This document shows positions 3,546 to 53,957 of a stretch of DNA of 64,000 bases, piece after piece. Positions within the stretch are counted from its first letter, which is position 1, and the number at the start of each line of letters is the position of its first letter. Position numbers and translations under genes: made by a program. The notes under the pieces were generated by a model that worked only from the letters and a program-made list of their open reading frames with translations, searched no databases and was not told where the DNA came from. This DNA comes from a virus (lineage: Duplodnaviria > Caudoviricetes): IMG/VR virus record IMGVR_UViG_3300030419_006251, positions 32,001 through 96,000 of that record. One strand, 5' to 3'.

Positions 3546-4325
3546 TCACAGCGACATTATTTTATCATAAGAATCCGTTTTGAGTTTCGACAACTTCTCT
3601 AAATAGCCGTTGCGTCTTAAAACTTTAAACGCTATATTTTCAGTAGAATATTCTCCACCTTGTTGAAGACCGCATTTTCTAAATTTCCGAAGCTTTTGTT
3701 TTAGACGATCTACATCAGAAACTGTTTCTCTATAATTCTCTTCTTCATAATCTCTCTCAATTATATCAATCTGGTTCATTATGTGTGCGGCCTTTACTTT
3801 AACATCATTATGATCAATTGTAAAGTCGCCGCGTTCTGGCTCGACCTCCCATTCGTTCTTTAACACCGAATAGACGCCAGTAGAGTGATGAACTTCATTT
3901 GAATCTTGTACATATAATTCAACTTCGTAGCCATGTATTTCAATATTGTGTTTATTGTTCCACATAGCACGACGAGCGTTCATCATAGCTTTTGTTATTT
4001 CTTCATCGCCAGGTAAAAGATTAAAATCTACTAAAATGTGCAAATCCACATCAGAATATACTGACCAGTTGTAGTTGGCAAGAGAGCCAGTAAAAGTTAT
4101 ATCATCAATCTTGACTGTAGGTAGTTCTATAGATTCCCAAAATTTACTGGCGATGTGCATCAAGCGTTCTCTTATACGGGGTTTTAATTTTTTATTTTGA
4201 CTCCATATATTTTCTTCTAATATATCATTAATTTTGAAACTTGAGGTATCAACTTTATTAGGATCAACACGCTCAGTTATTGGTGTGGTTGTAAACTTAG
4301 ACCAACTGTCGAGAAAAGCTTTCAT
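3546..4325 (-). CDS. Pol-beta superfamily nucleotidyltransferase, substrate unknown
   Basis: FTGSLANYNWSVYSDVDLHILVD (GS...DxD) plus third acidic strand GYEVELYVQD. Confidence 0.75.
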   Translation of the reverse strand: MKAFLDSWSKFTTTPITERVDPNKVDTSSFKINDILEENIWSQNKKLKPRIRERLMHIASKFWESIELPTVKIDDITFTGSLANYNWSVYSDVDLHILVDFNLLPGDEEITKAMMNARRAMWNNKHNIEIHGYEVELYVQDSNEVHHSTGVYSVLKNEWEVEPERGDFTIDHNDVKVKAAHIMNQIDIIERDYEEENYRETVSDVDRLKQKLRKFRKCGLQQGGEYSTENIAFKVLRRNGYLEKLSKLKTDSYDKIMSL

Positions 4326-6301
4326 TGCCCTTCCTTTATCCTCTCGGCTATTATTCTACTAAAAAGTTCTTCAAATTCTTCCTTTATAATCGGATCCAAT
4401 AATGATTGAACATACGGTGTGGCTCGCTGCTCCTGAAGAGGGTACCCGGGCGGAACTTGAATCCAATTTTGAGGATCTCTTAGGTTCTGAATCCTATCTC
4501 TTCGCGACGGCACTATATGTTGTTGAAACTGTTCCGGGTTGTCGAGATAAGCATTTAAAGTTTCTCTTTGCGCCAAATCTCTCGCATATTCATAAGCATC
4601 TCTCGGGTCAACGCCGGCGCTTGCTGCTCGCTGAAGCCATGCTCTATTTTCAGCTCCAAGTTGAGGATCTGATAGCCAATCATTCATGCTTGGAAAATCT
4701 GTCGCGCCGGCGATATCGTATACCACGCCGTCCGGAGTGGTTAGTCTTCCGTTCCTGTATTGCCCTGCTTCTCCAGACACTCCCGGGACATCGACAGTGG
4801 AGGTGCGTTGTTCTAAACTTGCTCGATCTTGCTCCTGTACTGACGCTAAATTTTCCGCATATTGCGGGGCATTAACTCTGGCCTGTAGTTCATATGCTTG
4901 GCCAACCGTCATACCGGGCGTAACGCCTACATCCTGCAAACTCTGTGGCACTTCTGTTATTTGAGAGTTCCATGCGGCTCGCATGTTACTGCCGCCGCGG
5001 CCCCAATTTCTTTGACGCTCGGCATCTAGATCTGCAGCGGTAGCGAGTGCTGCCAATTCTGGTTCACTTCGCATCCATGTTCTAAACTCCTGTTCGGACT
5101 CGTGGCTTGCGCTGACGCCGGCTCGTAGGTTATCACGAGTTGCGTTTCCAACAAAGCCATCGCCTTCCGGATTTGGAACTGCATTTGCAGCCCTCGTAGC
5201 CTCAGTGTTAACGCTTTGTCGGTATTCTTGCTCCAAGTGATCATCCGGGACTTCTACTCCTTCAATCGTGCGCGGCTGAATAACCTCTTGGGGAGGAGGT
5301 CGAGTAACTGTCACTTGACCACGATCACCAATCTCAACCTCTGGTCCTCCTTGCGTCGAACTAGTTCGGAAGTCACCCGGTAGGCCTCCCACATTGGCTA
5401 AGCGGTCTTCGACGGTTTCCGGAGAACCTAACATGGCTGCGGTCTGGGCCTGACTACGATCGAAGTCCGCCATTTGATTTACCAACGAGGCTCTTCTAGT
5501 AAGGTCGTGTCCGAGTTCCGGAGTTGGCATCTCTTCCGCAGCTGTGACACCCGCCTCGGCGGTCGATAGAGCACGCTCAGCGTCAGATCGATCGCTGGTC
5601 TTCCTGTTAATACTGTCAACCATGCTTACCGCATCTCGATAGCTCCTTCTGTCGGGAAAGTTAGCTCTGAGTGGGGCGTGACCTCCTTGGTCGGTGGCTG
5701 TAAAGAACAGAGGATTCTCTTCCCTAAATTGTTCTTCGGCCGGCGTTAATTCGCTTCTGGCTATAGTATCACTTGCTATTTCAGTATTAGTGCGCCCAAG
5801 GCCCAGCGTTCGATCTGCAAACTGTCTTAAGCCGGGAAGAGCATGTCCGAGAACCGGTATACTCTCATCATAATCTCTACTATATTCCGCATCGCGATAA
5901 GCCCTGTTGCGATCTACAACCTGCCCCTGTTCTGAAGAACGCCCAAACCCTTGTACAAACCTCTCGCCCGGGCCAAGTGACGAAACCGTGGTGCCATCGG
6001 GGCGCTCATAGTTATAGCCCGCGCGTTCCATGGCCGCTCTTTCTTCAGCGTCACGGGCCTCTCCTTCACGATTCCTTGCTTGCCTAGCCGTTCTACGAGC
6101 TAACTTTCTGGCGTGTCTGCGATCTGCGCGTTCACCTCGGCGCCTTCTGCGGCCGGCGCCTCGGGCCTCACGCTCATCGTCATCACTTACATATGTTGGT
6201 GTTTCTTCTGGTTCTGCAGATGCTGTGGCCTCCACCTCGGTGGCATCTTCTTGCTCATTTAGTAGTTTAAAGGCGCGCCATTCTTGGAATATGTCCTTCA
6301 T
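4322..6301 (-). CDS. Hypothetical 659-aa protein, probable internal head protein with an Arg-rich segment
   Basis: Long ORF overlapping its neighbours; N-terminal EWRAFKLLNE, RRRRRGERADRRHARK tract, C-terminal IIKEE. Confidence 0.6.
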   Translation of the reverse strand: MKDIFQEWRAFKLLNEQEDATEVEATASAEPEETPTYVSDDDEREARGAGRRRRRGERADRRHARKLARRTARQARNREGEARDAEERAAMERAGYNYERPDGTTVSSLGPGERFVQGFGRSSEQGQVVDRNRAYRDAEYSRDYDESIPVLGHALPGLRQFADRTLGLGRTNTEIASDTIARSELTPAEEQFREENPLFFTATDQGGHAPLRANFPDRRSYRDAVSMVDSINRKTSDRSDAERALSTAEAGVTAAEEMPTPELGHDLTRRASLVNQMADFDRSQAQTAAMLGSPETVEDRLANVGGLPGDFRTSSTQGGPEVEIGDRGQVTVTRPPPQEVIQPRTIEGVEVPDDHLEQEYRQSVNTEATRAANAVPNPEGDGFVGNATRDNLRAGVSASHESEQEFRTWMRSEPELAALATAADLDAERQRNWGRGGSNMRAAWNSQITEVPQSLQDVGVTPGMTVGQAYELQARVNAPQYAENLASVQEQDRASLEQRTSTVDVPGVSGEAGQYRNGRLTTPDGVVYDIAGATDFPSMNDWLSDPQLGAENRAWLQRAASAGVDPRDAYEYARDLAQRETLNAYLDNPEQFQQHIVPSRRDRIQNLRDPQNWIQVPPGYPLQEQRATPYVQSLLDPIIKEEFEELFSRIIAERIKEGQ

Positions 6302-6462
6302 TCTTCTTCATCCTCGCCGGCTTCAGGTAAATCTTCAAACGCATCTTCATCATCAAACATCTCCAGTACCGCATCTTCGACTTCGTATGTCGTGCCCTCG
6401 GTCTCCAAAGGTTTATGTTTTGGTGCGCAAGATAATATGAATAATAACAGTAAATAACGCAT
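6298..6462 (-). CDS. Small putative lipoprotein (54 aa) missing from the ORF track
   Basis: Manual translation MRYLLLLFILSCAPKHKPLETEGTTYEVEDAVLEMFDDEDAFEDLPEAGEDEEE; lipobox-like ILSC; ATGA overlap with the next gene; late motif just upstream. Confidence 0.65.
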   Translation of the reverse strand: MRYLLLLFILSCAPKHKPLETEGTTYEVEDAVLEMFDDEDAFEDLPEAGEDEEE

Positions 6463-6469
6463 GCTTTAA

Positions 6470-6478
6470 TAAATAGTT
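6470..6478 (-). promoter_or_regulatory. Putative late promoter motif
   Basis: AACTATTTA 7 nt before the ATG at 6462. Confidence 0.5.
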
Positions 6479-6519
6479 CCGCTTTATAGAAGATTCTCAT
6501 AAATTCTACTTTCAAGAAT

Positions 6520-6918
6520 TCACAGCGGCAGGTCCTCATCTTCTTCGACTTGTTTCACAAGCATCCAATCTTCGGAAGGTTGTTCAAGCTCAGGCTGCTT
6601 AGTATAGTCGACTGTTATTTCTTCATGGGGCATTATATCTACTAACGCAACCAAATGCCTTTCACCTCCATTCAATACGCTTTCGCAATTTGGCTGAGAT
6701 GAGTGGTTGTGATACCTGCCTAAATCCGTGGTTGGCGCCAGACGGCCTTGCTCACCTTGAGGCTGGTGCGCTATCCCAAGTACTGTGCCCTGCGGCATGT
6801 GCTCCCCTGAAAACACGCCCATGCCGTGTATGGGGGAAGGCGCCAAATATAAAGAAGTTTCGAATGTTGGGGCCGAAGTCTCTGAGAGAAACATTTTCCA
6901 TTTCTTGTGATAAGTCAT
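6520..6918 (-). CDS. SET-domain protein (putative lysine methyltransferase)
   Basis: SPIHGMGVF, GRYHNHSSQPNC and EEITVDY are the three canonical SET motifs. Confidence 0.88.
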   Translation of the reverse strand: MTYHKKWKMFLSETSAPTFETSLYLAPSPIHGMGVFSGEHMPQGTVLGIAHQPQGEQGRLAPTTDLGRYHNHSSQPNCESVLNGGERHLVALVDIMPHEEITVDYTKQPELEQPSEDWMLVKQVEEDEDLPL

Positions 6919-8330
6919 TTATACGCCCTCCTAACAGCATCGATGTATTTGCTCGACAGGTTATAGTTTTCTAGGTCTCTGATATCAACCATTTTATAGT
7001 CTACATGCTCGCTGCTTAAGCTTACCCTTTTTTGCGGCAATCGAGCCTTGTAATAGGTGTTTCTGCCTTGGGAATAAAGCTTTTCTGGGCGTCTCACCAT
7101 AAGTCCTGTTTCTTCCCAAACCTCTCTCTGAAGACCGTCTTGTGCGTCCTCGCCCTCAAGAATGTGGCCACCGGGAAGATCCCATTCGCCTGCGTGCTTT
7201 TTCAAATGTGCTGAACGCTTGAGTAGCAAAACTTTATTTCCGTCACATATAACCGCCTTTGCAATCTTGTTGCTGTCCACCTTCTTCTCCTCTTTTAAAT
7301 AGTTTCTCCATTTATCAAAAATAAGCTTTTCTGTAACCATTGGTCTTTCTGGCGTATCTGCCATCGCGATTGTGTTTAAAATATCGGCTAAATCCTGATC
7401 GCTCAAGCCGGGCTTTTTCATGGTGTTTATCAACTCTCCTAAGTCCCCACCCACTGCGGATCCGCGGACGGCTGGAAGATCTACACCTAATTTAAGCTTT
7501 TTCATATCCTGTCCGGTAAAGAAGGGCGTCGACCTTAAGCCTTGCTGGTGTTGCTTGTTATACAAAGCCCTTAATTGCAATATATCCGCATATGGCTCTG
7601 AGATTTGAAGAGCGTGGGGAAGGGCCGGCCCGGTTGGGCTTCGGCTGGATTCAGGATCAAAGCGATCAAGATTGAGGTCGGAAATGCCGGGAAATGCTAG
7701 CTCAAATTTATCTCTTTGGCGCCACGCTGCGGTGGCATGCGAATCTGATATTCTATCGCCGTGTTTTGTATATCTTCGCCTCTTTTCTCGCGCTTGACTG
7801 CTATCGCCCGGGTCGCCTTCTTGGCCGGAGCGTGCATCGATGACATGCGCCGTCTCATGGCCAAAGACTGGAGCAAATGGAAGGGACCGGGGCCAAGCAT
7901 TACTCGCCTGGAGGGTGGTTTCGTGCGGATTAAAGTCTATATACGGCTGGTGTCTCGGGCCCATGCGAATTCCGGACTTCCCGCCAGTAGCTCTAGCATC
8001 TATCCAGTTTTTAGCAGGATCTCTAACTTCAGGCTCTACTTCGAGTGCAGATTCAATACCCGGTAGAATCTCATTTTTGTAACGGTCAATTACCTCGTCG
8101 TCAGACAACTCGGGATACCTTTCCTTGATATCTTTGAGCCAAACTTGCGCACTGGCGCCGTGAGGTACCGACGGATCGTCTGAAATAGTGTAGGAATCTC
8201 TGTACATTTGTTGCTGAGCGGCCATAACCGCCTTTGCTTCATCTGTATACTCCATTCTATCCGGAAAGTCTGGTTCCAGCACTTCTCGCTCGGTTAAAAA
8301 TTCTCTCCATTTTTTATAATACTTGGTCAT
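6915..8330 (-). CDS. Fusion of a zincin-like HExxH domain and a C-terminal Nudix hydrolase
   Basis: HETAH at 7845-7859; exact Nudix box G-HILEG-E-DAQDGLQ-REVWEETGL. Confidence 0.8.
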   Translation of the reverse strand: MTKYYKKWREFLTEREVLEPDFPDRMEYTDEAKAVMAAQQQMYRDSYTISDDPSVPHGASAQVWLKDIKERYPELSDDEVIDRYKNEILPGIESALEVEPEVRDPAKNWIDARATGGKSGIRMGPRHQPYIDFNPHETTLQASNAWPRSLPFAPVFGHETAHVIDARSGQEGDPGDSSQAREKRRRYTKHGDRISDSHATAAWRQRDKFELAFPGISDLNLDRFDPESSRSPTGPALPHALQISEPYADILQLRALYNKQHQQGLRSTPFFTGQDMKKLKLGVDLPAVRGSAVGGDLGELINTMKKPGLSDQDLADILNTIAMADTPERPMVTEKLIFDKWRNYLKEEKKVDSNKIAKAVICDGNKVLLLKRSAHLKKHAGEWDLPGGHILEGEDAQDGLQREVWEETGLMVRRPEKLYSQGRNTYYKARLPQKRVSLSSEHVDYKMVDIRDLENYNLSSKYIDAVRRAYK

Positions 8331-8415
8331 TTTTAAAAATCAAAAATCTGAAAAATTAGCCTGCGAAAAAATTTCGGCATATGCCGATCATAGGATCGAA
8401 TTAGCTCACAGCTTT

Positions 8416-8859
8416 TTAGTCTCCTCCGTAAATTGCGTACAGTTCATCTGCCTCGCCATGTGGCTTGCATACCTGTTCGCCATATTTGTTCTTAACTTTT
8501 TCGCTTAGAGGGATAGCTTCGCCGTCGCCATCAATTCTAACGAATGTCATATCGGTCGTAAGCACTATTCTCTGAGAGCCGTTATATACACTGTGTCTTC
8601 TGGCCTCCAGACGAACAGTCATAGATCTGTTGCCAATCTTTTTCACCTTTCCATAAATCTTAATGATTTGTCCAGGTCGAACAGGCTTATTAAATACGAC
8701 CTCTGAAATTTTCTTTGTTACCATTCTCGGCGTGTCACATGCCTGACATGCAAAAATAGCGCCTGCCTCGTCAAGCCATGCAAGCATGGTGCCTCCAAAC
8801 AAATTGCCATGATAACCAACATTGGCAGCTTTGCAAAAGTGTGTCGATATTAATTCCAT
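8416..8859 (-). CDS. Hotdog-fold acyl-CoA thioesterase (YciA-like)
   Basis: NVGYHGNLFGGTMLAWLDEAG, FNKPVRPG and MTFVRID motifs. Confidence 0.85.
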   Translation of the reverse strand: MELISTHFCKAANVGYHGNLFGGTMLAWLDEAGAIFACQACDTPRMVTKKISEVVFNKPVRPGQIIKIYGKVKKIGNRSMTVRLEARRHSVYNGSQRIVLTTDMTFVRIDGDGEAIPLSEKVKNKYGEQVCKPHGEADELYAIYGGD

Positions 8860-8873
8860 ATAATTTCCTTATT

Positions 8874-9668
8874 TTAAACAGCAGATTTAAGCTCTCGCAT
8901 ATAAAATTCAAGATCTTCAGGCTGGTGACTATAGCGGCCGCACAACGCGTTAAGAGTAGAAATTGTATTCGTTATTTCAAAATTTGTTTTGATGAACACA
9001 TCACTAACTTGCTGATTTGTCAAACTTGTAAGGTCGCTAAAATCTATATCGCTATAAGCCTTTTCAGATTTTATGGCATTGCTAAGACACCATAACTGTT
9101 CGCAGCAGCAGTGCCCCGTTGGTGAGGGGTGTGGCGAGGGAACTTTGGCCATGGCAAAAACATAATTACTATTTCTTTGTACATCTGCCCACTCTTTGAT
9201 ATCATAAGCGTTGCCTAAGAATAGCCAGTCAGAAGGGTTAAAAAATCTATGACCCTCACCAGGGACTTTCTTGTACGCATCGATAGTCATTATATTGCTT
9301 ATATATAGCTTAGATCTCAATACATCATACCCATTTTGCTCAACAGGAATGTCCTTAAAAATCTCAAAGGGATCTCTAGCATGTACCATATCGGAGCGTG
9401 TTTTTAACACCAAGTCGTCATCCTCACATAACCTCAAAGCCTCTGTGAGACCATACACCTGTCTATTAAAATTTTGTATTGGGCCCGGGCCTGGGTCTTC
9501 TAAATATAAAACTTGTGCGTTTGTATCAATATCCCTATCTTGATCCTTCCATGTAGAGAATATAACATGAGTGTTGGGCAATGATTCAAAAAACTTAAGG
9601 CTTTGTTCTGTCCAAGGGGTTATTCTGCCTTGCACTATAACAACTTTATTTCTATTATTTACTTGCAT
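8874..9668 (-). CDS. WavE-like lipopolysaccharide synthesis protein
   Basis: VIVQG...IFSTW...DPG...NFNRQ...LKTRSD...PSDW pattern recalled for the WavE family; ATG at 9668 preceded by GGAG. Confidence 0.6.
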   Translation of the reverse strand: MQVNNRNKVVIVQGRITPWTEQSLKFFESLPNTHVIFSTWKDQDRDIDTNAQVLYLEDPGPGPIQNFNRQVYGLTEALRLCEDDDLVLKTRSDMVHARDPFEIFKDIPVEQNGYDVLRSKLYISNIMTIDAYKKVPGEGHRFFNPSDWLFLGNAYDIKEWADVQRNSNYVFAMAKVPSPHPSPTGHCCCEQLWCLSNAIKSEKAYSDIDFSDLTSLTNQQVSDVFIKTNFEITNTISTLNALCGRYSHQPEDLEFYMRELKSAV

Positions 9669-12277
9669 AAATATTTTCTCCACTTGTTATACATTCTCTG
9701 CATGTCTCTGTTGCCGTCTCGTATTCTACTCTCTGTTAGATTTTCATCTTCAGAATTTTGGGCGGGCGGCGGATCGGGCTCAGCGTCCCACAGTTGTTCG
9801 ATAGGTTCTGGACCTTTCATTCCGGTCGGCATTCGCAGTCTGCGTATTGTTTCCAGTGTACCCAAAAAGATCTCGCGAAGCTTATCTTCATCATCGACAG
9901 TGCCGGGTTGCCAAACTGCAGCTTCAAATAGGTCTATCACCTCGTCTGGGTCTCCATCGCCAACGACGAATGCAAACTCGTAGTTTACTCCATTATCAAG
10001 GGGCATAGCTCCGGTTCCCTCCTCCCATATGTCTACATTGTACTCTGTTTGGACCTCTTCTTTTGCAGCTGCTAGCATCTTCTTTCGAATTGCATGTTTA
10101 AAATCGCGAGAGTCTAATACTTGTTGTAAAACCTGTGGGTTCCATTGAAGCTCTTTGGTATCGAAGAAAAATTCTACTTGACCCACTATAATGGTGGCCT
10201 CCTCGGGATCCCATTTGTCATCAAGCTCAAGCGTCCACTCATAAGGATCGATATCTTTGTTTGAAACCTCTATGGCCATGTTTAAAAACCTCCCACCAGT
10301 CATAGAGCCTTCCATTTTATAGTGTCTGGTGAGGTAATGTTTAATTCCGTCGTACATGTCATCAATAGTATTAATGGCTACGCCAAAGTCCTCGACTTCT
10401 TCTGCGTCTGCGGTAAACGGCATGCCAGTCCACTCTGGAATCTTTTCTGGCCAAATACGGAAGCCTAATTCAATCGTATGATTCTGATTGCGACGAAGCC
10501 ATGAGGCTGATTCATCTGCCCAAGCCCAACCCAAGTCGTTAAGTTCCGAGACTGCCCAGCGCGCTGAGCTTGGGACAGGAAGCTTGTTCCATTCTTCTAC
10601 ACCCCACTGGACTTTCATCCATGCCTTGAGCATGATGATAATCTGACCATCGTCGTCTTCAACGCTTGCTTCAATTTCTGCAGCTTGGTATCTACCGTTC
10701 CATTGATCGACTATCTCGTCTACTCGGGCCTGCACAGCTTCAATCTGGCCGGCGGTAAACATAGAGGGATCTAAGTCATATTCCGGACTTGCATCTTGCT
10801 CGACCTGTCCGTCAAAGTTTTCGTTAGGTCGACCAGTTAGTTGCACCATTAGTTCGCGGCGGCCGGCGTAGCCTTGAGTGTCTTCGTAAGAAGCACCAAT
10901 AAGTTTAAACTTGTTCAGGTCAATGCCATCACCATACGCATCAATCGGCATGTTTTCAAGAGCCTCTTTTTGATTTTCTCTTGCCCACTGAACCACGCGT
11001 TCAACAAAGCCGGGAATCTTCTTTCCATACACACGCTTCTCGGGTACCGCCAACTGCGTACCAATATCATAACCACCTTCTGGATCTGGAGTGTCGTACA
11101 CAAACTTTCTAAGGCGCAATCTAGAAATTGGATTTAATTCTGTGCTGAGTCCGATGTGGCTTCCTCTAACATCATCTGGGAATATTTCTCCCACATGATC
11201 ACGATCGATGGCGGCCTCTGCAGCTTCGATTGAATCGGCACCAGTAGCTTCCAACAGGTCTTGTGTGTTGACGATATATGCAATGGCTCCGTGCCCATGG
11301 GCTTCGGCGACGGCACACTTATAGTAGGTATCTCCTCCGCTTCTGGATGGTGGGCTGTGGCAGGATGTGATGTTATTAAAATCGCTCATGCGAAGGATAT
11401 CGATGGGATCCCGCGTGAGAATGATGGAGTATTGATCTCCCTTTAGTTCGTCAATTTCCTTCTTAATGTAGCCTGCATTTTCTTGCCAATATTTGGCCAT
11501 CTTAGTTGCCCAATCGGGTATCTCGCTCCATGCTGGTTCAAGATATCCGGGATTTGGAATGTATAGCTTAAGCTGACTATATAGTTGGTCATATCTTCCC
11601 CTCTCTTGTTCATCGGGCAGCGCATGCTTAAGCTGAGTTCCGGTAACATTACCGGGAGAACGGGGGGTCACGCCGGCGGTCTTAAGGCTGTCGACAACCT
11701 TTTGAAAAAGTACATCCTGCTTCTTTGATAGTTCTGCAATCTTCGCAAATAGCTTACCGACCTTCATCTGGATTTTTTTGCTTCTCTTTTGTCGCGACTG
11801 GCCGCGGCCTAGGCCCATCAAATCGTCCAGCAAGTCCTCGGAACTTGTAATATCTCGCTCTGCTGAAACAATGCCACGCTTCCAATCAACTTCATACTCC
11901 TGTTTTCTGAAAAACTCCATGAACTTTCCAAGATCAGAATCTATATCGACAGCTTGAAAGTCTATAACCCTACGGGTCTTGCCTTGAAATGCATCATTGA
12001 AGGCGAGTTCTTCTGGGCCCATTTCATCGATGGCATCGCGAATATGCTCTACTTCGTCTTCAGATATCTCGCGCAGGAGACGAAGGCCTTCTCCCATAGG
12101 CGGCGCGGACTTGCCAGATGGCTTAGTCATACCCTGTACTCCGGAGCCCTCTCGCTTATCATTATCTCCAGTGCTTAGCAAAAAGTCTAGCTCTCCCGGG
12201 AGATTCTGTCGCATTCGTTTTTGAAAGGGTTCTTCTTCAGCCAAGAATTGGCGCCACTTGTGATGGAAATCAGACAT
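9659..12277 (-). CDS. Hypothetical 872-aa protein, probable internal head protein
   Basis: Long ORF; KWRQFLAEE leader and C-terminal KWRKYL; conserved-looking core TRDPIDILRMSD...SCHS. Confidence 0.6.
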   Translation of the reverse strand: MSDFHHKWRQFLAEEEPFQKRMRQNLPGELDFLLSTGDNDKREGSGVQGMTKPSGKSAPPMGEGLRLLREISEDEVEHIRDAIDEMGPEELAFNDAFQGKTRRVIDFQAVDIDSDLGKFMEFFRKQEYEVDWKRGIVSAERDITSSEDLLDDLMGLGRGQSRQKRSKKIQMKVGKLFAKIAELSKKQDVLFQKVVDSLKTAGVTPRSPGNVTGTQLKHALPDEQERGRYDQLYSQLKLYIPNPGYLEPAWSEIPDWATKMAKYWQENAGYIKKEIDELKGDQYSIILTRDPIDILRMSDFNNITSCHSPPSRSGGDTYYKCAVAEAHGHGAIAYIVNTQDLLEATGADSIEAAEAAIDRDHVGEIFPDDVRGSHIGLSTELNPISRLRLRKFVYDTPDPEGGYDIGTQLAVPEKRVYGKKIPGFVERVVQWARENQKEALENMPIDAYGDGIDLNKFKLIGASYEDTQGYAGRRELMVQLTGRPNENFDGQVEQDASPEYDLDPSMFTAGQIEAVQARVDEIVDQWNGRYQAAEIEASVEDDDGQIIIMLKAWMKVQWGVEEWNKLPVPSSARWAVSELNDLGWAWADESASWLRRNQNHTIELGFRIWPEKIPEWTGMPFTADAEEVEDFGVAINTIDDMYDGIKHYLTRHYKMEGSMTGGRFLNMAIEVSNKDIDPYEWTLELDDKWDPEEATIIVGQVEFFFDTKELQWNPQVLQQVLDSRDFKHAIRKKMLAAAKEEVQTEYNVDIWEEGTGAMPLDNGVNYEFAFVVGDGDPDEVIDLFEAAVWQPGTVDDEDKLREIFLGTLETIRRLRMPTGMKGPEPIEQLWDAEPDPPPAQNSEDENLTESRIRDGNRDMQRMYNKWRKYLCK

Positions 12278-12284
12278 TACCTAA

Positions 12285-12293
12285 TAAATAGTT
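12285..12293 (-). promoter_or_regulatory. Putative late promoter motif
   Basis: AACTATTTA 7 nt before the ATG at 12277. Confidence 0.55.
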
Positions 12294-33545: not shown

Positions 33546-33554
33546 TAAATAGTT
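33546..33554 (-). promoter_or_regulatory. Putative late promoter motif
   Basis: AACTATTTA in the intergenic region before the sheath gene. Confidence 0.55.
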
Positions 33555-36241: not shown

Positions 36242-36304
36242 ACATAGATCCTCCTGTGTCTAAATAGTTAGACGAAGGACAAACCGGCACTTATAAAAGT
36301 ATAA

Positions 36305-37469: not shown

Positions 37470-39374
37470 TTAGCTAGTTGCGCCGGCTTCACCGAGGAGA
37501 CCGCGAACGATAACCAGACCGTACATATCCGGACGGACCATCTTCTTACCGTAGCGCGTCATGACGCCCTTACGGGGTACGAAGTCTTCCGTTCCGAAGA
37601 TTGTAGGTGTGGTCTGCAGCGGCACATAAGGTGCGTATACATACCCACTCTCAAGGAAGCTGTTACCGCGGCGGCCGACGAGGACCACATTACGGGGGAA
37701 GTATGGGTCAACCCAAACATCCCACTTCTTGGAGATAGAGCCAGCGTTAACTGCTCCGACGGTACCCTTATCGGCATCAGCGGTGATGTTAGCGCGGAAA
37801 CCACTTGTGAACTCAAGGATATTAGCAACTTCGGGGCCTACGACCAAGAAGTTAGCTCCACCCCGCAGAGTTTTGCGGTGGATCTGTGCAGACACATCGT
37901 TGATAGTCTCAACAAGAGTCTCATACCACTCGCTAACCGTACCGGTGAAGTCGGGTGCAGCAGAGCTAGCTCCGATTTCAACGCCGGTTTCGCGATTGAG
38001 GAACATACCCGGGGAACGAGCCCAGTAATATGTACCAGCGGTAGCGCCTCTAATAAGGTCGTTAACGATCTCGCGGTCAATCTCAAGAGCAATCTGCTCA
38101 GAGAGAATGCCAGTAAGCTCGACTTCGGCATCAAGGTTGTGATAGGCATTAAGATCCTGTCCCAACTCTGGTGTCCACTTAGCCTTGAGCTTCTTGGTGA
38201 TCGCGGTGATCGCAGACGAATCGACCTTGATGTCAATCTCGGGGATTCCCGGATCATTCTCAAGACCCCAAACATCGGCACCAACAACGGCTCCGAGTGC
38301 TCTCTCGCCAACATTATCGAGATTATCGATGATTGGATAAGAGAACGACTTACCACTGCCACCAGCAACTGCGGCTGTGTCGTTGTTTTCGATCAGCGAG
38401 GCGGCGATTGTTGCAGCGGTGGTGGATCCAACAGCCTGCCAAACCATGATGACAGACGAGGCGCCTTCTTCACCAATCTTGTTGTCGATGTCCATAGAAC
38501 GAATTCCGCCCAAGTCCGAATCCTGACCCACAATATGAGTCAAACGACGAACGAGACGACACTCGCTTCTATCAACATCAGATTCACAACCAGTGGCGCC
38601 AGTACCATCAGGCTTAGAACCAGTAGCTTCGATTGCAACCAAGTTATCAAGGTTGAGGCGAGAACCGCTAGCATGCAACCACTGACCAGAACCAGAAGCT
38701 GCGGTGATAACAACGACCGAACCAGAAAGATCTGGGTCGAAACGAACCAGCTTATCTGCTGTGAGTGTTGTGGATCCACCATGATATCCACTAAATGTGA
38801 ACTCATATGAGGATCCGCCGGCGGTCTTAAGACCATCGCCGATAGTACCCTGCCACACAACATCAAGCTCAAGCTGAGTCGAACCGGTTGGAGACGAGTA
38901 GCCATTGTTCATGGAATAGAATCCGGCTTCCGCGTAAGATCCTGTGAGGCTAACGCCACCCATGATTTCCTGACCAACCTTACCGCCGCCGAAGAGGGAA
39001 GCGTCACCGTCAGAACTACCACGAGGGGAGGTTCCGGGAGTGAACTGGAAGTCTAGGAAGAAGATGAGGCCCGAGGGCAAGCTCATCGGCTGAACAGAAA
39101 CGAGATCGTTGGCAATTAAGCCTCCGAAAACGCGGCGCACGATGGGGAATGCAACAGATGCAAAACCCTCGACATCTCCACCAGCCATGGTAGATGCCTC
39201 GCGCAAAAGCTCCTTAGCTTGGTTTTCAAGCAAACGAGCCATGTTAGAACGAGTGTTATCGCTAGAAAGTCCTTCTAAAAGGCCGGTGCGTTCCCACTTA
39301 GAGAGAAGAGCGCTACCTTCCTTACCGAGATCCCTACTAACAATACCTTCGGTTAGTTTTTTTAAAACAGACAT
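37470..39374 (-). CDS. Major capsid protein (gp23-like)
   Basis: AFPIVRRVF, VSVQPMSLPSGLIFFLDF, KLKAKWTPELGQDL..YH.LDAE.EL, YAPYVPL and GVMTRYG. Confidence 0.95.
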   Translation of the reverse strand: MSVLKKLTEGIVSRDLGKEGSALLSKWERTGLLEGLSSDNTRSNMARLLENQAKELLREASTMAGGDVEGFASVAFPIVRRVFGGLIANDLVSVQPMSLPSGLIFFLDFQFTPGTSPRGSSDGDASLFGGGKVGQEIMGGVSLTGSYAEAGFYSMNNGYSSPTGSTQLELDVVWQGTIGDGLKTAGGSSYEFTFSGYHGGSTTLTADKLVRFDPDLSGSVVVITAASGSGQWLHASGSRLNLDNLVAIEATGSKPDGTGATGCESDVDRSECRLVRRLTHIVGQDSDLGGIRSMDIDNKIGEEGASSVIMVWQAVGSTTAATIAASLIENNDTAAVAGGSGKSFSYPIIDNLDNVGERALGAVVGADVWGLENDPGIPEIDIKVDSSAITAITKKLKAKWTPELGQDLNAYHNLDAEVELTGILSEQIALEIDREIVNDLIRGATAGTYYWARSPGMFLNRETGVEIGASSAAPDFTGTVSEWYETLVETINDVSAQIHRKTLRGGANFLVVGPEVANILEFTSGFRANITADADKGTVGAVNAGSISKKWDVWVDPYFPRNVVLVGRRGNSFLESGYVYAPYVPLQTTPTIFGTEDFVPRKGVMTRYGKKMVRPDMYGLVIVRGLLGEAGATS

Positions 39375-39419: not shown

Positions 39420-40661
39420 CTATTTTAGACCGGCAAGAGCTTTCATCCTATCATATGCTTGCACATCACGGGGTTTCTTTTCTTGTCGTCTGGGAAGTAG
39501 AAGAGAACGATCTCTACTAACTGCTTCGCGAAGTGATTGTGGCTTTTTCTTGCTGGTAGTACCAGCAGTCGAGCCCACAGCGCTTTGAAGTGTTTCGTAA
39601 ATCACTTTTGCTTCTTCTACAGAACCGCACTGTGTGATCGCGTCGACAATTTTATTTCTTTGTCGCTCATTCAGCGAGGGATCGCTTAATACACGGTTCG
39701 TATAAAGTAGTCTAGCATTCGAAAGATTGGCATTTGTTAAATGCTCTTGCATTTTCACTAGTGCCTTCTTAAATTGACCACTTTGGTGTTTGTAATAATT
39801 GACTTCAGTCTGAAGTCTCTTAATTGATTCGTTGACTTCTTCAGATTTTTCCTGCTGTTCTGCTACAGCCATTTCGGCTTGAACAATATCTTCCGCTTCT
39901 TGCATAGCGCCTGTTGGTGTAGTTCTACCACCTAAGCCACTATCCGGAGCGCTGAGATTTGCTCTAATTTCCTCGGCTATTTGTGTAACAAGTTCATCAG
40001 GTATCATCATTTCAGAATCAACTGCTTCTTGTAGTTTTTCAGTACTTAAGTTAAGTACCATATCATCTTTAATTTTATAATCTCTTGTATTTTCCATCAT
40101 TGGTTGTGGAGGGCCGCCACGACCGCCGGGAGCCATCGGGCTCAAACCGGGAGGAAGCGCAGGCGGACCGGGGGGCATGCCGGGCATGCCGGGTGGGCCA
40201 GGAGGTGGCGGAGCCATTCCCATGCCTGCACCTTGCGCCTGTTGCGCCTCAAGTGCTTGCTCTTCTGCATCCACTCGGGCGGCTAATTCATTAAAATCTA
40301 TCTCTACCTCTTGGCCTTCGTCTGGACATGGGCATAAAGGCACATTATCTGCATACGCTAGTGGCGCCACGGGGACATCTGCCATGGCAGCCGGATCTGG
40401 CGGAGGCGTGCCACCGGGGCCCGGGGGCATTCCAGGGGGCATTCCAGGGGGCATTCCCGGAGGACCGCCGGCCATCATAGGGTCCATCATAGGATCGGGC
40501 TCAGGTGGCATGCCAGGAGGCATCCCCTGCTCCAACAAAGACTCTACAGCCTTCTTAACTTCTGGTGCGTACTTTTCTATAATTGATTGTTCGGCACTCT
40601 TAACTGCTGCTTCTCTCAAAGCTGTAGCATCAATAATTGCTTGTTCAAGCAATGTAGACAT
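39420..40661 (-). CDS. Prohead core/scaffolding protein (gp22-like)
   Basis: Immediately upstream of MCP; coiled-coil NLSNARLLYTN, many LxE sites, Pro/Gly/Met low-complexity segments. Confidence 0.7.
   Translation of the reverse strand: MSTLLEQAIIDATALREAAVKSAEQSIIEKYAPEVKKAVESLLEQGMPPGMPPEPDPMMDPMMAGGPPGMPPGMPPGMPPGPGGTPPPDPAAMADVPVAPLAYADNVPLCPCPDEGQEVEIDFNELAARVDAEEQALEAQQAQGAGMGMAPPPPGPPGMPGMPPGPPALPPGLSPMAPGGRGGPPQPMMENTRDYKIKDDMVLNLSTEKLQEAVDSEMMIPDELVTQIAEEIRANLSAPDSGLGGRTTPTGAMQEAEDIVQAEMAVAEQQEKSEEVNESIKRLQTEVNYYKHQSGQFKKALVKMQEHLTNANLSNARLLYTNRVLSDPSLNERQRNKIVDAITQCGSVEEAKVIYETLQSAVGSTAGTTSKKKPQSLREAVSRDRSLLLPRRQEKKPRDVQAYDRMKALAGLK
40423..40458. repeat. 12-bp tandem repeat x3 encoding (GMPP)3
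   Basis: gggggcattcca gggggcattcca gggggcattccc on the + strand. Confidence 0.9.
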
Positions 40662-40762
40662 GTTTTTTTCTCCCGGAATATGTTTATTGCAATAAAGTAT
40701 AATTACTTTTAATCAAAAATAAATAGTATCTCATCTAAGTAAATGCCGATTTTTGATAAGAA

Positions 40763-48786: not shown

Positions 48787-48855
48787 TTTTACATATCTCC
48801 TTTGCTAGTAAATAGTGTCGACATCACTAAGTAGCATCAAGAAGCACCAAGTTAA

Positions 48856-52667: not shown

Positions 52668-52889
52668 TTACCTTTTGCTTCTATAATTAGTTCTTTTCTT
52701 GCGTTTTAATCTCTCGATTGTTCTTTTTCTTTCATTTTGTTTTCTTCTTTTAGCATTGGATGGCTTTTCGTAATACCTGCGTCTTCTAACCTCTTGCACT
52801 ATGCCTGCTTTCTTAGTTTTTTTTATAAACCTTCTTATCATTTTTTCAGGAGTATCATTTCTCCTCGGTTTTACATTTACATTCGCCAT
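52668..52889 (-). CDS. rpsU: Phage-encoded ribosomal protein bS21
   Basis: EKMIRRFIKKTKKAGIVQEVRRRRYYEKPSNAKRRK matches the bS21 consensus. Confidence 0.92.
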   Translation of the reverse strand: MANVNVKPRRNDTPEKMIRRFIKKTKKAGIVQEVRRRRYYEKPSNAKRRKQNERKRTIERLKRKKRTNYRSKR

Positions 52890-52891
52890 AT

Positions 52892-53350
52892 TTACACCAA
52901 TTTACTCCAATTTTTTGAGGCACCAAAGAAAGCGCCGATGTCTACACCGGAATCTCCAGGGTCTACGCCCGCCAAAGCTCCCGGAGCGCTTGGGCCGGCA
53001 TCCGGAGAGCCGGCTCTTTTAAGGGGCTCTGTTCCTTCAAACAGGTCGACACCATTATAGGCGTCTTTTCCAACAGCGCTGGACATCTGATGTCTAGATT
53101 CCATAATCTTTCTTCTTCTTTCGCGATCTGCCTCGGCAGCGGCTCGAAGTTGTTCTTTTTCTGTAGGCGTATTTCTCGCTTGTGGGGCGCGCGATTCCAC
53201 TATGGGAGTAACGCCAGCAGAATGCACTCCGACCATTACCTCAGTTACGATTCCAGACAAAACACCTTCTTCTAGAATAACCTCTTTTATACACTCTTTA
53301 ATCAGTGGTCTCAATATTTTTTTTAAATCTTGATTATTCATTTTAGTCAC
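52892..53350 (-). CDS. Hypothetical head-associated protein
   Basis: LIKECIKEVILEE motif; between protease and bS21. Confidence 0.6.
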   Translation of the reverse strand: MTKMNNQDLKKILRPLIKECIKEVILEEGVLSGIVTEVMVGVHSAGVTPIVESRAPQARNTPTEKEQLRAAAEADRERRRKIMESRHQMSSAVGKDAYNGVDLFEGTEPLKRAGSPDAGPSAPGALAGVDPGDSGVDIGAFFGASKNWSKLV

Positions 53351-53957
53351 TCAATATATCATTTAAAATACGATTTATTCTATCTGATTTTGTAAAAACA
53401 TTTGATAAATTTAAATTCTTTGCTTCTTTAATCATATAGGCTTCGTTTGTCGACGGTTCAGATACCATATCAAAACAGATAAGTTGAAAATCATCTTCGA
53501 CAATTGTCTTTCCCTTGCTTTCAGTCACAGAGCCCAAACCTCTAGAAGAAATTCCGAGTTTAACCCCTGCTTTTACCAATTCTTGCAATATCTTACCAGA
53601 TGGAGTATCTAAACATTTAATTTTACCCATAACTGCGTTCGGATTATCTTTGTCCCACCATACCTCAGTAACTAAGTGAGAAGCATTTTTGAGATTTATA
53701 ACTTGTTCGTCTGGATGATCTAATTCGCCCAGTGCACGACTTTCATCAATAAGTTTTTGATAGTTTTTCATTTCCCTTTCTAATATGTGTTTAGGATACA
53801 CTCGGCCATTGCCGTTTTTAGCCTCGGCTTCTTGTAGTTTTCCAGATAATATTACTCCGCCGCCAACGACAAACTCTTTTTCGGACTCAGTTAATAAGTC
53901 CGGGCAAGAGCCTCCATCGCAAAGCTCATAAAATTCTCTTAATAATTTTTTGCTCAT
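53343..53957 (-). CDS. Prohead protease (gp21-like)
   Basis: NGNGRVYP, LGELDHP, GISSRGLGS and FDMVSEPST. Confidence 0.92.
   Translation of the reverse strand: MSKKLLREFYELCDGGSCPDLLTESEKEFVVGGGVILSGKLQEAEAKNGNGRVYPKHILEREMKNYQKLIDESRALGELDHPDEQVINLKNASHLVTEVWWDKDNPNAVMGKIKCLDTPSGKILQELVKAGVKLGISSRGLGSVTESKGKTIVEDDFQLICFDMVSEPSTNEAYMIKEAKNLNLSNVFTKSDRINRILNDILSD

Follow-up and report, generated by a model that had tools for sequence, protein, structure and literature searches.

Why should five long genes in one block of a phage genome, with unrelated domains behind their first residues, begin with variants of the same short amphipathic peptide? The block (positions 3546–12277) lies in a stretch of 64,000 nucleotides, called the window below, which comprises bases 32001–96000 of the single-contig 200,760-bp virus record IMGVR_UViG_3300030419_006251. 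Positions refer to the window unless the genome is named, and the features located by them are on the minus strand, which holds nearly all genes of this genome (42% G+C). A preliminary description of the window had quoted the five starts and likened them to the capsid-targeting sequence (CTS) of phage T4 internal proteins. All five genes are present as long minus-strand open reading frames (ORFs) that start as quoted: a 259-amino-acid (aa) nucleotidyltransferase (NTase)-like protein (3546..4325, start MKAFLDSWSKFTTTPITE), a 659-aa protein (4322..6301, start MKDIFQEWRAFKLLNE), a 132-aa SET-domain protein (6520..6918, start MTYHKKWKMFLSE), a 471-aa protein with an HExxH and a Nudix domain (6915..8330, start MTKYYKKWREFLTE) and a conserved 872-aa protein (9659..12277, start MSDFHHKWRQFLAE). 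Each of them fits the pattern h-h-x-x-W-[KR]-x-[FY]-[LI]-x-E, and the helicase, 5'-3' exonuclease (RNase H-like), 4HBT thioesterase and WavE-like genes are without it, as had been stated. We consider it rather probable that this start, hereafter the tag, is a removable prohead-targeting peptide processed by a gp21-type protease, in other words an expanded, rearranged and divergent functional analogue of the T4 CTS. The new results reported here are a mirrored copy of the tag at a C-terminus, polyprotein-like proteins of the form tag-HExxH-tag-hydrolase, and a depletion of the motif [LI]-x-E in the tagged cargo.

The motif W-x-x-F occurs 36 times among the 64,779 residues encoded by the whole genome, and with its Trp at residue 7–8 it is found in 7 of 224 ORFs, where about 0.25 would be expected. 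W8 and [FY]11 are present in all seven tags, each of which also has [LI]-x-E within 20 residues. Two of the seven were found outside the window by a genome-wide motif scan, namely a 719-aa protein (genome 4844–7003, start MKLLFENWRRFITE) and a 1720-aa protein with an M23 peptidase domain (genome 7000–12162, start MEKYFKAWREFQARTKIEE); no more tags were found in the small ORFs of this genome. Besides the seven N-terminal copies there are two internal ones, in the 471-aa and 719-aa proteins, and one at the C-terminus of the 872-aa protein. The shared start could be a product of chance or a remnant of paralogy, and paralogy does link the HExxH domains at the N-termini of the 471-aa and 719-aa proteins (E = 3e-7), yet the domains behind the tags are unrelated and the counts already refute chance, so that we give this explanation practically no weight.

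Scanning for the leader beyond the window, as the preliminary description had suggested, gave many further cases in IMG/VR relatives in addition to the two extra genes of this genome. A back-translated pattern for MKLLFENWR, which fixes residues 1–9 only, retrieved at least 119 stretches with at least 179 tagged ORFs, of which at least 138 are distinct, with the consensus MKLLFENWRxYLxE. These are true N-termini: an in-frame stop lies fewer than 60 codons upstream in 140 of 141 distinct matches, and the remaining one has no in-frame stop within the fetched stretch. At positions outside the search pattern, the 138 distinct tags have Y/F at position 11 (91%), L/I/V/M at 12 (93%) and E at 14 (82%); positions 10 and 13 are variable and conservation ends at 14. 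What follows the tag is unrelated from one case to the next (111 non-redundant cargo bodies, mean column identity 4%), and about one fifth of these bodies contain Pfam domains, including protein kinase (5), Nudix (3) and NT5C (2), with DnaJ, HD, RNase_T (exonuclease), HNH and others as single cases. One relative (L003, a 203,859-bp contig) has eight adjacent tagged genes, and another (G001, complete, 180,711 bp) has six, including a tagged SET protein. In a Tara relative (L137, 13064–16725), genes for cytochrome c (CBB3-type), NifU_N and Fe-S biosynthesis adjoin tagged genes. Peptidase_S77, the family of the gp21-type protease, was detected in 5 of 5 tag-carrier genomes of 81–100% completeness (180–205 kb); the short IMG/VR carriers gave no protease match, which is uninformative because they are fragments, estimated to be only 21–27% complete.

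The same alignments bear on the idea that the element acts at the level of nucleic acid, as a translation-initiation enhancer or a junction for cassette-swapping recombination, with the peptide incidental. Tagged genes do cluster, gene sets vary among relatives, a tag fragment stands at the end of a gene immediately ahead of another tagged gene, and codons 2, 5, 6 and 7 are strongly biased. Against this, Leu3, Leu4 and Arg9 are encoded by several synonymous codons beside invariant residues, which argues for selection on the peptide; functional-looking copies occur inside proteins and at C-termini; and the variants in the window share the peptide pattern and little DNA sequence. We therefore regard a nucleic-acid element as very improbable. 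The tag is statistically real, under protein-level selection, modular, and tied to genomes that encode a gp21-type protease.

Its gene content marks the uncultured phage as a T4-like myovirus of a divergent kind. Among the genes in the window are those for Portal_T4, a Gp23-type capsid protein, Peptidase_S77, a T4-type large terminase (TerL), tail sheath and tail tube, as well as a RecA/UvsX homologue, gp32 and a DnaB-like helicase. The gp21-like protease noted in the preliminary description is borne out at 53343..53957 (Peptidase_S77 1.7e-28; phrog_207 2e-51), and by analogy with T4 it is presumed to be the enzyme that removes the tag; judged by this protein, the nearest isolates are Flavobacterium phage immuto and Microcystis phage Mel-JY01 (45–53% identity). 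Its own N-terminus reads MSKKLLRE, with KKLLRE at residues 3–8. The LLRE/A site ascribed to the major capsid protein (MCP; 634 aa, 37470..39374, identified by the Gp23 profile) is likewise there as sequence, in the form KELLRE/AS at residue 59, within the propeptide. The Gp23 profile covers only residues 369–618 and a short N-terminal stretch, so that, compared with T4 gp23, about 250 residues are left over as an insertion. The head-gene block also holds, two genes downstream of that for the protease, a homologue of ribosomal protein S21 (73 aa, 52668–52889, PF01165 5.5e-13).

The T4 CTS is MKTYQEFIAE (PMC8442874). Amber-suppressor mutagenesis of IPIII traced targeting mainly to residues 4 and 7; residues 8 and 10 govern processing, which Asp at residue 10 blocks (PMC9026906). 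When the two peptides are aligned on the aromatic residue, T4 residues 4, 7, 8 and 10 correspond to W8, [FY]11, [LI]12 and E14 of the tag, so that the functional positions mapped in T4 are exactly those conserved in the tag logo. In T4, cleavage falls after FLTE65 in gp23 and after LLRE10 in gp24 (PMC9958956). With the T4 sequences read from NC_000866, FLTE/A of gp23 matches WREFLTE in the tag of the 471-aa protein, and LLRE/S of gp24 matches the LLRE in the MCP and protease of this phage. The tag resembles the T4 CTS in several ways: both are short amphipathic leaders at the N-terminus, both show aromatic-x-x-Phe-[IL]-x-Glu in a common register and close with [LI]-x-E, both are portable between unrelated proteins, and both belong to genomes that encode a gp21-type protease and a Gp23-type capsid. 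The tag differs in its length (14 residues versus 10), in having Trp-[KR] for Tyr-Gln and an extra hydrophobic turn (LLF), in its cargo (enzymes of 130–1720 aa versus small basic proteins), in its spread (seven tagged genes here and >100 cargo families in the clade), in its internal and, mirrored, C-terminal copies, and in being known from sequence alone. Sorting of proteins into the T4 scaffolding core is still called mysterious (PMC9958956). The MCP propeptide carries LLSKWERTGLLEG at residues 22–35 (39290–39340), which resembles LLNKWKPLLEG of T4 gp23, and this conserved MCP/gp23 helix resembles the tag LLFENWRKYLNE with a shift of one residue; the likeness is the ground for a speculative suggestion that the tag imitates the scaffold-contacting part of the capsid protein.

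Proteins that share the prohead with an active protease specific for [LI]-x-E must survive it, and so packaged cargo should avoid this motif. We compared 111 tagged cargo bodies with 797 untagged ORFs of the same loci, using composition-normalised observed/expected ratios. For [LI]-x-E the value was 0.88 in tagged cargo (bootstrap confidence interval 0.80–0.98) and 1.29 in untagged ORFs (1.24–1.34), a ratio of 0.69 (per-protein Mann-Whitney p = 2.8e-6). Control motifs gave ratios close to one: [LI]-x-Q 0.98 (1.15 tagged, 1.17 untagged), [LI]-x-K 1.03 (1.16, 1.12), E-x-[LI] 1.01 (1.22, 1.21), [LI]-E 0.95 (0.98, 1.03) and [LI]-x-x-x-E 0.97 (0.95, 0.97). Tagged cargo is thus specifically depleted in the protease motif. 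The value for [LI]-x-D was raised (1.32 versus 1.14, ratio 1.16), which fits an escape from cleavage by replacement of Glu with Asp.

The distribution of these sites also bears on the possibility that tagged proteins do enter the prohead, but as part of its core or scaffold, or are degraded there, and are not delivered as active enzymes. There is precedent in T4, where the core proteins gp67, gp68 and gp22 are destroyed by gp21 (PMC9958956). In the present genome, small proteins beside the protease have 4.3–4.6 [LI]-x-E sites per 100 aa versus 1.25 genome-wide, an enrichment expected of a degradable core; the 152-aa protein adjoining the protease (52892..53350, 4.6 per 100 aa) is a candidate for such a prohead-core protein. 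The 413-aa protein encoded directly upstream of the MCP gene (39420..40661) is likely the gp22-like scaffold, as judged by position and N-terminal likeness only. The tagged cargo is poor in protease sites, unlike these scaffold-like neighbours of the protease, and consists of intact enzyme domains (SET, Nudix, NT5C, kinases, M23), and for these reasons we find a mere core or scaffold role improbable.

Under the preferred reading, targeting to the prohead followed by cleavage, the phage probably packages an enzyme set together with its DNA, since the tag closely mirrors the T4 head-loading signal. The amphipathic tag helix would dock the protein onto the scaffolding core during prohead assembly; the gp21-type protease would then cut after the Glu of [LI]-x-E, freeing the N-terminally tagged cargo, splitting polyproteins at their internal tag and removing the C-terminal tag of the 872-aa family at an upstream [LI]-x-E; the mature enzymes would remain in the head with the DNA and would probably enter the cell at infection. 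The preliminary claim of a T4-CTS-like tag cut by a gp21-like protease gains support from several independent computational lines: the register and its functionally mapped positions, the modularity, the co-occurrence with Peptidase_S77, the mirror tag behind [LI]-x-E and the motif depletion. The enzymes of its proposed payload are tagged, and its list was too narrow, as it lacked the 1720-aa M23 protein, the tag-HExxH-tag-NT5C protein and the 872-aa protein. By analogy with IPI and Alt of T4, the enzymes may plausibly be delivered into the host and might form the proposed "writer/eraser kit" that acts ahead of phage gene expression.

The 872-aa protein carries a tag at each end. Its N-terminal tag is encoded at 12236–12277 and the C-terminal one, MYNKWRKYLCK, at 9662–9700. 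A C-terminal mirror tag is present in 119 of 119 aligned members of this family of ~800-aa proteins, with the pattern [LIV]-V-[KR]-x-W-[KR]-x-[FY]-[LI], in which the Trp is invariant and after which two or three residues remain. An [LI]-x-E ends exactly 5 residues ahead of that Trp in 50 of 99 distinct tails, against a baseline in which about 25% of any 30-residue stretches in the family hold the motif; the protein of this phage has LTE at residues 847–849 (within 9728–9745). This puts the cleavage motif between the cargo and the putative docking helix at either end. In the AF2 model (119 sequences, pLDDT 78) both tags form terminal helices, which disordered linkers (residues 26–69 and 820–855) tether to a confident core; despite the reasonable model, searches by Pfam, PDB sequence, Atlas and fold gave no match for this protein. 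Most homologues (P0045–P0145; L137 10001–12400) have a second conserved N-terminus, which contains LLE and LLRE sites and may represent a further type of head propeptide. With its two tags the 872-aa protein invites comparison with the T4 ADP-ribosyltransferase Alt, an enzyme of several hundred residues that is packaged in the head and injected. Alt has a propeptide at either terminus, and gp21 removes both (PMC9026906); unlike it, the tagged proteins examined contain no ADP-ribosyltransferase domain and show no sequence relationship to Alt.

The 471-aa protein begins with a tag ending in WREFLTE (8289–8330), followed by an HExxH domain with HETAH (7836–7868), an internal tag EKLIFDKWRNYLKE at residues 334–347 (7290–7331), just ahead of Nudix, and a Nudix domain (~6918–7268). 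Both tags and the HExxH motif are kept in five full-length metagenomic homologues. By domain match (PF00293 58 bits, cut-off 21.1; NUDIX 1e-15) the C-terminal domain is a Nudix hydrolase, for which the AF2 model has block-mean pLDDT of ~67–90 (residues 355–471); outside it, including the HExxH domain, the model is poor. The 719-aa protein has the same layout of tag, HExxH domain, internal tag (~residue 487) and an NT5C-type nucleotidase. No zincin family was matched when the HExxH domains of the two paralogues were searched against Pfam. Because Nudix (a 140-aa gene in L003) and NT5C stand alone behind a tag in relatives, the two fused proteins look like polyproteins joined at the tag. Several details of the 471-aa gene concern its internal tag: the N-Y-L codons spell ACTATTTA (7296–7303), next come AAAGAGGAG and, where Nudix begins, an in-frame GTG, down to ~7270, and an in-frame Met (residue 333), which is not kept in homologues, precedes the tag. 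A separate Nudix-only or tagged-Nudix product may be made from this gene.

The other tagged genes of the block are of varied character, and their functional assignments in the preliminary description fared unequally: the SET and Nudix calls hold, the nucleotidyltransferase match is weak, and the supposed metalloprotease is the HExxH domain without a Pfam match. The 132-aa protein, whose tag (6880–6918) ends in LSE, is by domain match a SET-domain lysine methyltransferase (SET 1e-9; PF00856 39.1 bits, cut-off 22.4; KMT2A SET domains 2e-4). The NTase-like protein has weak NTP_transf_2 and MTPAP-like matches and belongs with phrog_36119 (7e-48); its degenerate tag (residues 1–18, 4272–4325) ends in ITE, and its homologues in Lak megaphages, Maribacter phage Molly and one Kyanoviridae phage are without the tag, their alignments beginning at residue 29 of the window protein. 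In the 659-aa protein the tag (6254–6301, ending in LNE) is followed by an acidic linker and a strongly Arg-rich low-complexity stretch (residues ~45–95); no homologues were found in a word-indexed protein search (5.8 billion clusters), PDB or Pfam. Untagged genes for the 4HBT thioesterase (8416–8859) and the WavE-like protein (8874–9683) lie amid the tagged ones. A near-identity DNA search of the block against GenBank phages gave no match.

Would such genes be expressed together with the head? The T4 late promoter TATAAATA was rejected as the late signal here, as it has no systematic use in the genome. A candidate to take its place is ACTA[AT]TTA, which is strongly strand-specific (36 coding-strand copies versus 2 in this genome, 31 versus 0 in G001) and is found 7–70 nt upstream of sheath, neck, scaffold-like and fibre-like genes and of their G001 homologues, and none was found upstream of replication genes. 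The 872-aa and 1720-aa genes, too, have a copy directly upstream, as does a small ORF that leads into the genes for the 659-aa and NTase proteins. Specifically, ACTATTTA at 12285..12292, directly after the RNase H-like gene, is 7 nt upstream of the 872-aa gene start, and ACTATTTA at 6470..6477 is 7 nt upstream of the 54-aa ORF (6298–6462); further examples in the window are at 33546–33553, 36261–36268, 40720–40727 and 48809–48816. Several copies are only 7–8 nt from the start codon, and if the motif is a promoter, mRNA leaders must be very short or absent. The pattern is suggestive of late co-expression of the tagged genes. A terminator-like hairpin with a T-run (8374–8387) lies between the thioesterase and 471-aa genes, for which reason the 471-aa/SET pair may be a separate transcription unit without the late-type motif. 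Outside the window, genome positions 183,000–200,000 contain a cluster of sigma-70-like promoters (TTGACA, 17 nt, TATATT-type) before many small genes and are probably the early region.

The main competing explanation is that the tag docks to, or is processed for, some other hub, such as a chaperone, a replication or metabolic complex, or zymogen control, and that the enzymes are never packaged. It draws on the position of the tagged genes amid replication genes and on the resemblance of much cargo to nucleotide metabolism (Nudix, NT5C, HD, exonuclease). Several further points weigh against packaging. The cargo reaches 1720 aa in length and includes enzymes of ordinary metabolic appearance (NT5C, Nudix, DnaJ), in contrast to the small basic internal proteins of T4; the motif depletion is weak in this genome alone (0.96 versus 1.27, seven proteins), although in the same direction; the link of tagged genes to the late motif is statistically not strong, and no copy of it lies upstream of the 471-aa/SET unit. 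Most members of the 872-aa family start otherwise, with MLNDEQILLKT..LLEN...KLLRE in place of the Trp tag, and do so even in a Tara contig with MKLLFENWR on adjoining genes. In the isolates HTVC008M (a Pelagibacter phage), Mel-JY01 and immuto the tag pattern occurs at chance (control) level only, and tblastn searches of GenBank phages, with the 872-aa and 1720-aa proteins and, from IMG/VR, a tagged protein of 746 aa as queries, found no relative with virion data. On the other side, the tag fits the T4 CTS register at mutationally mapped positions and ends in the prohead-protease motif, the specific depletion of [LI]-x-E points to exposure to a protease of gp21 specificity, and 3 of the 4 tagged transcription units of the genome carry the motif found upstream of structural genes. 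On balance we judge the other-hub explanation unlikely and keep to prohead targeting.

How does the proposed system relate to those already described? The internal proteins of T4 (IPI, IPII, IPIII) are small and highly basic, which the tagged cargo (SET, Nudix, NTase, HExxH, M23) is not, and a PHROGs search found no internal-protein family among the tagged proteins; since the cargo is unrelated and neither small nor basic, the tagged proteins fall by sequence outside the IP family and would share with it only the same kind of targeting system. Another parallel is offered by giant phages of the phiKZ-like group, SPN3US for example (Ali et al. 2017, PMC5694885), with their ejection and inner-body proteins: a prohead protease related to that of T4 processes many proteins of the head interior, and conserved propeptides at the N-terminus were proposed as targeting sequences. 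Those propeptides are mostly 80–130 residues long rather than one short universal tag, and they are backed by virion mass spectrometry, whereas the tag has been read from genomes only. A functional analogy can also be drawn to encapsulin cargo-loading peptides, which are short, portable, placed at either terminus and send enzymes inside an HK97-fold shell, but no protease removes them, and in sequence they have nothing in common with the tag. No paper describing the tag turned up when the literature was searched for its sequence and for CTS in cyanophages.

T4 is known to inject only few proteins. For the uncultured T4-like clade to which this phage belongs (~180–205 kb, with Tara Oceans relatives) we tentatively propose, as a serious possibility, a much broader scheme, in which one universal 14-residue tag, placed at the N-terminus, inside polyproteins or, as a mirror copy preceded by a cleavage site, at the C-terminus, loads >100 enzyme families into the capsid, where the head protease trims or splits them. 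Kinases, hydrolases of the Nudix and NT5C types, a SET methyltransferase, zincin-like proteins and an M23 peptidase would be among the cargo. Avoidance of the protease motif by cargo provides a general way to test computationally which proteins of uncultured phages are packaged in the head, and the tag, as a clear and testable consensus, could widen the use of T4-type protein packaging as a tool. If the scheme is true, the mirrored C-terminal tag and the tag-separated polyproteins would represent new design rules for capsid cargo loading, the injected "effector" repertoire would be readable directly from genome sequence, and a common group of uncultured phages would bring into the host a large repertoire of ready-made enzymes that changes rapidly.

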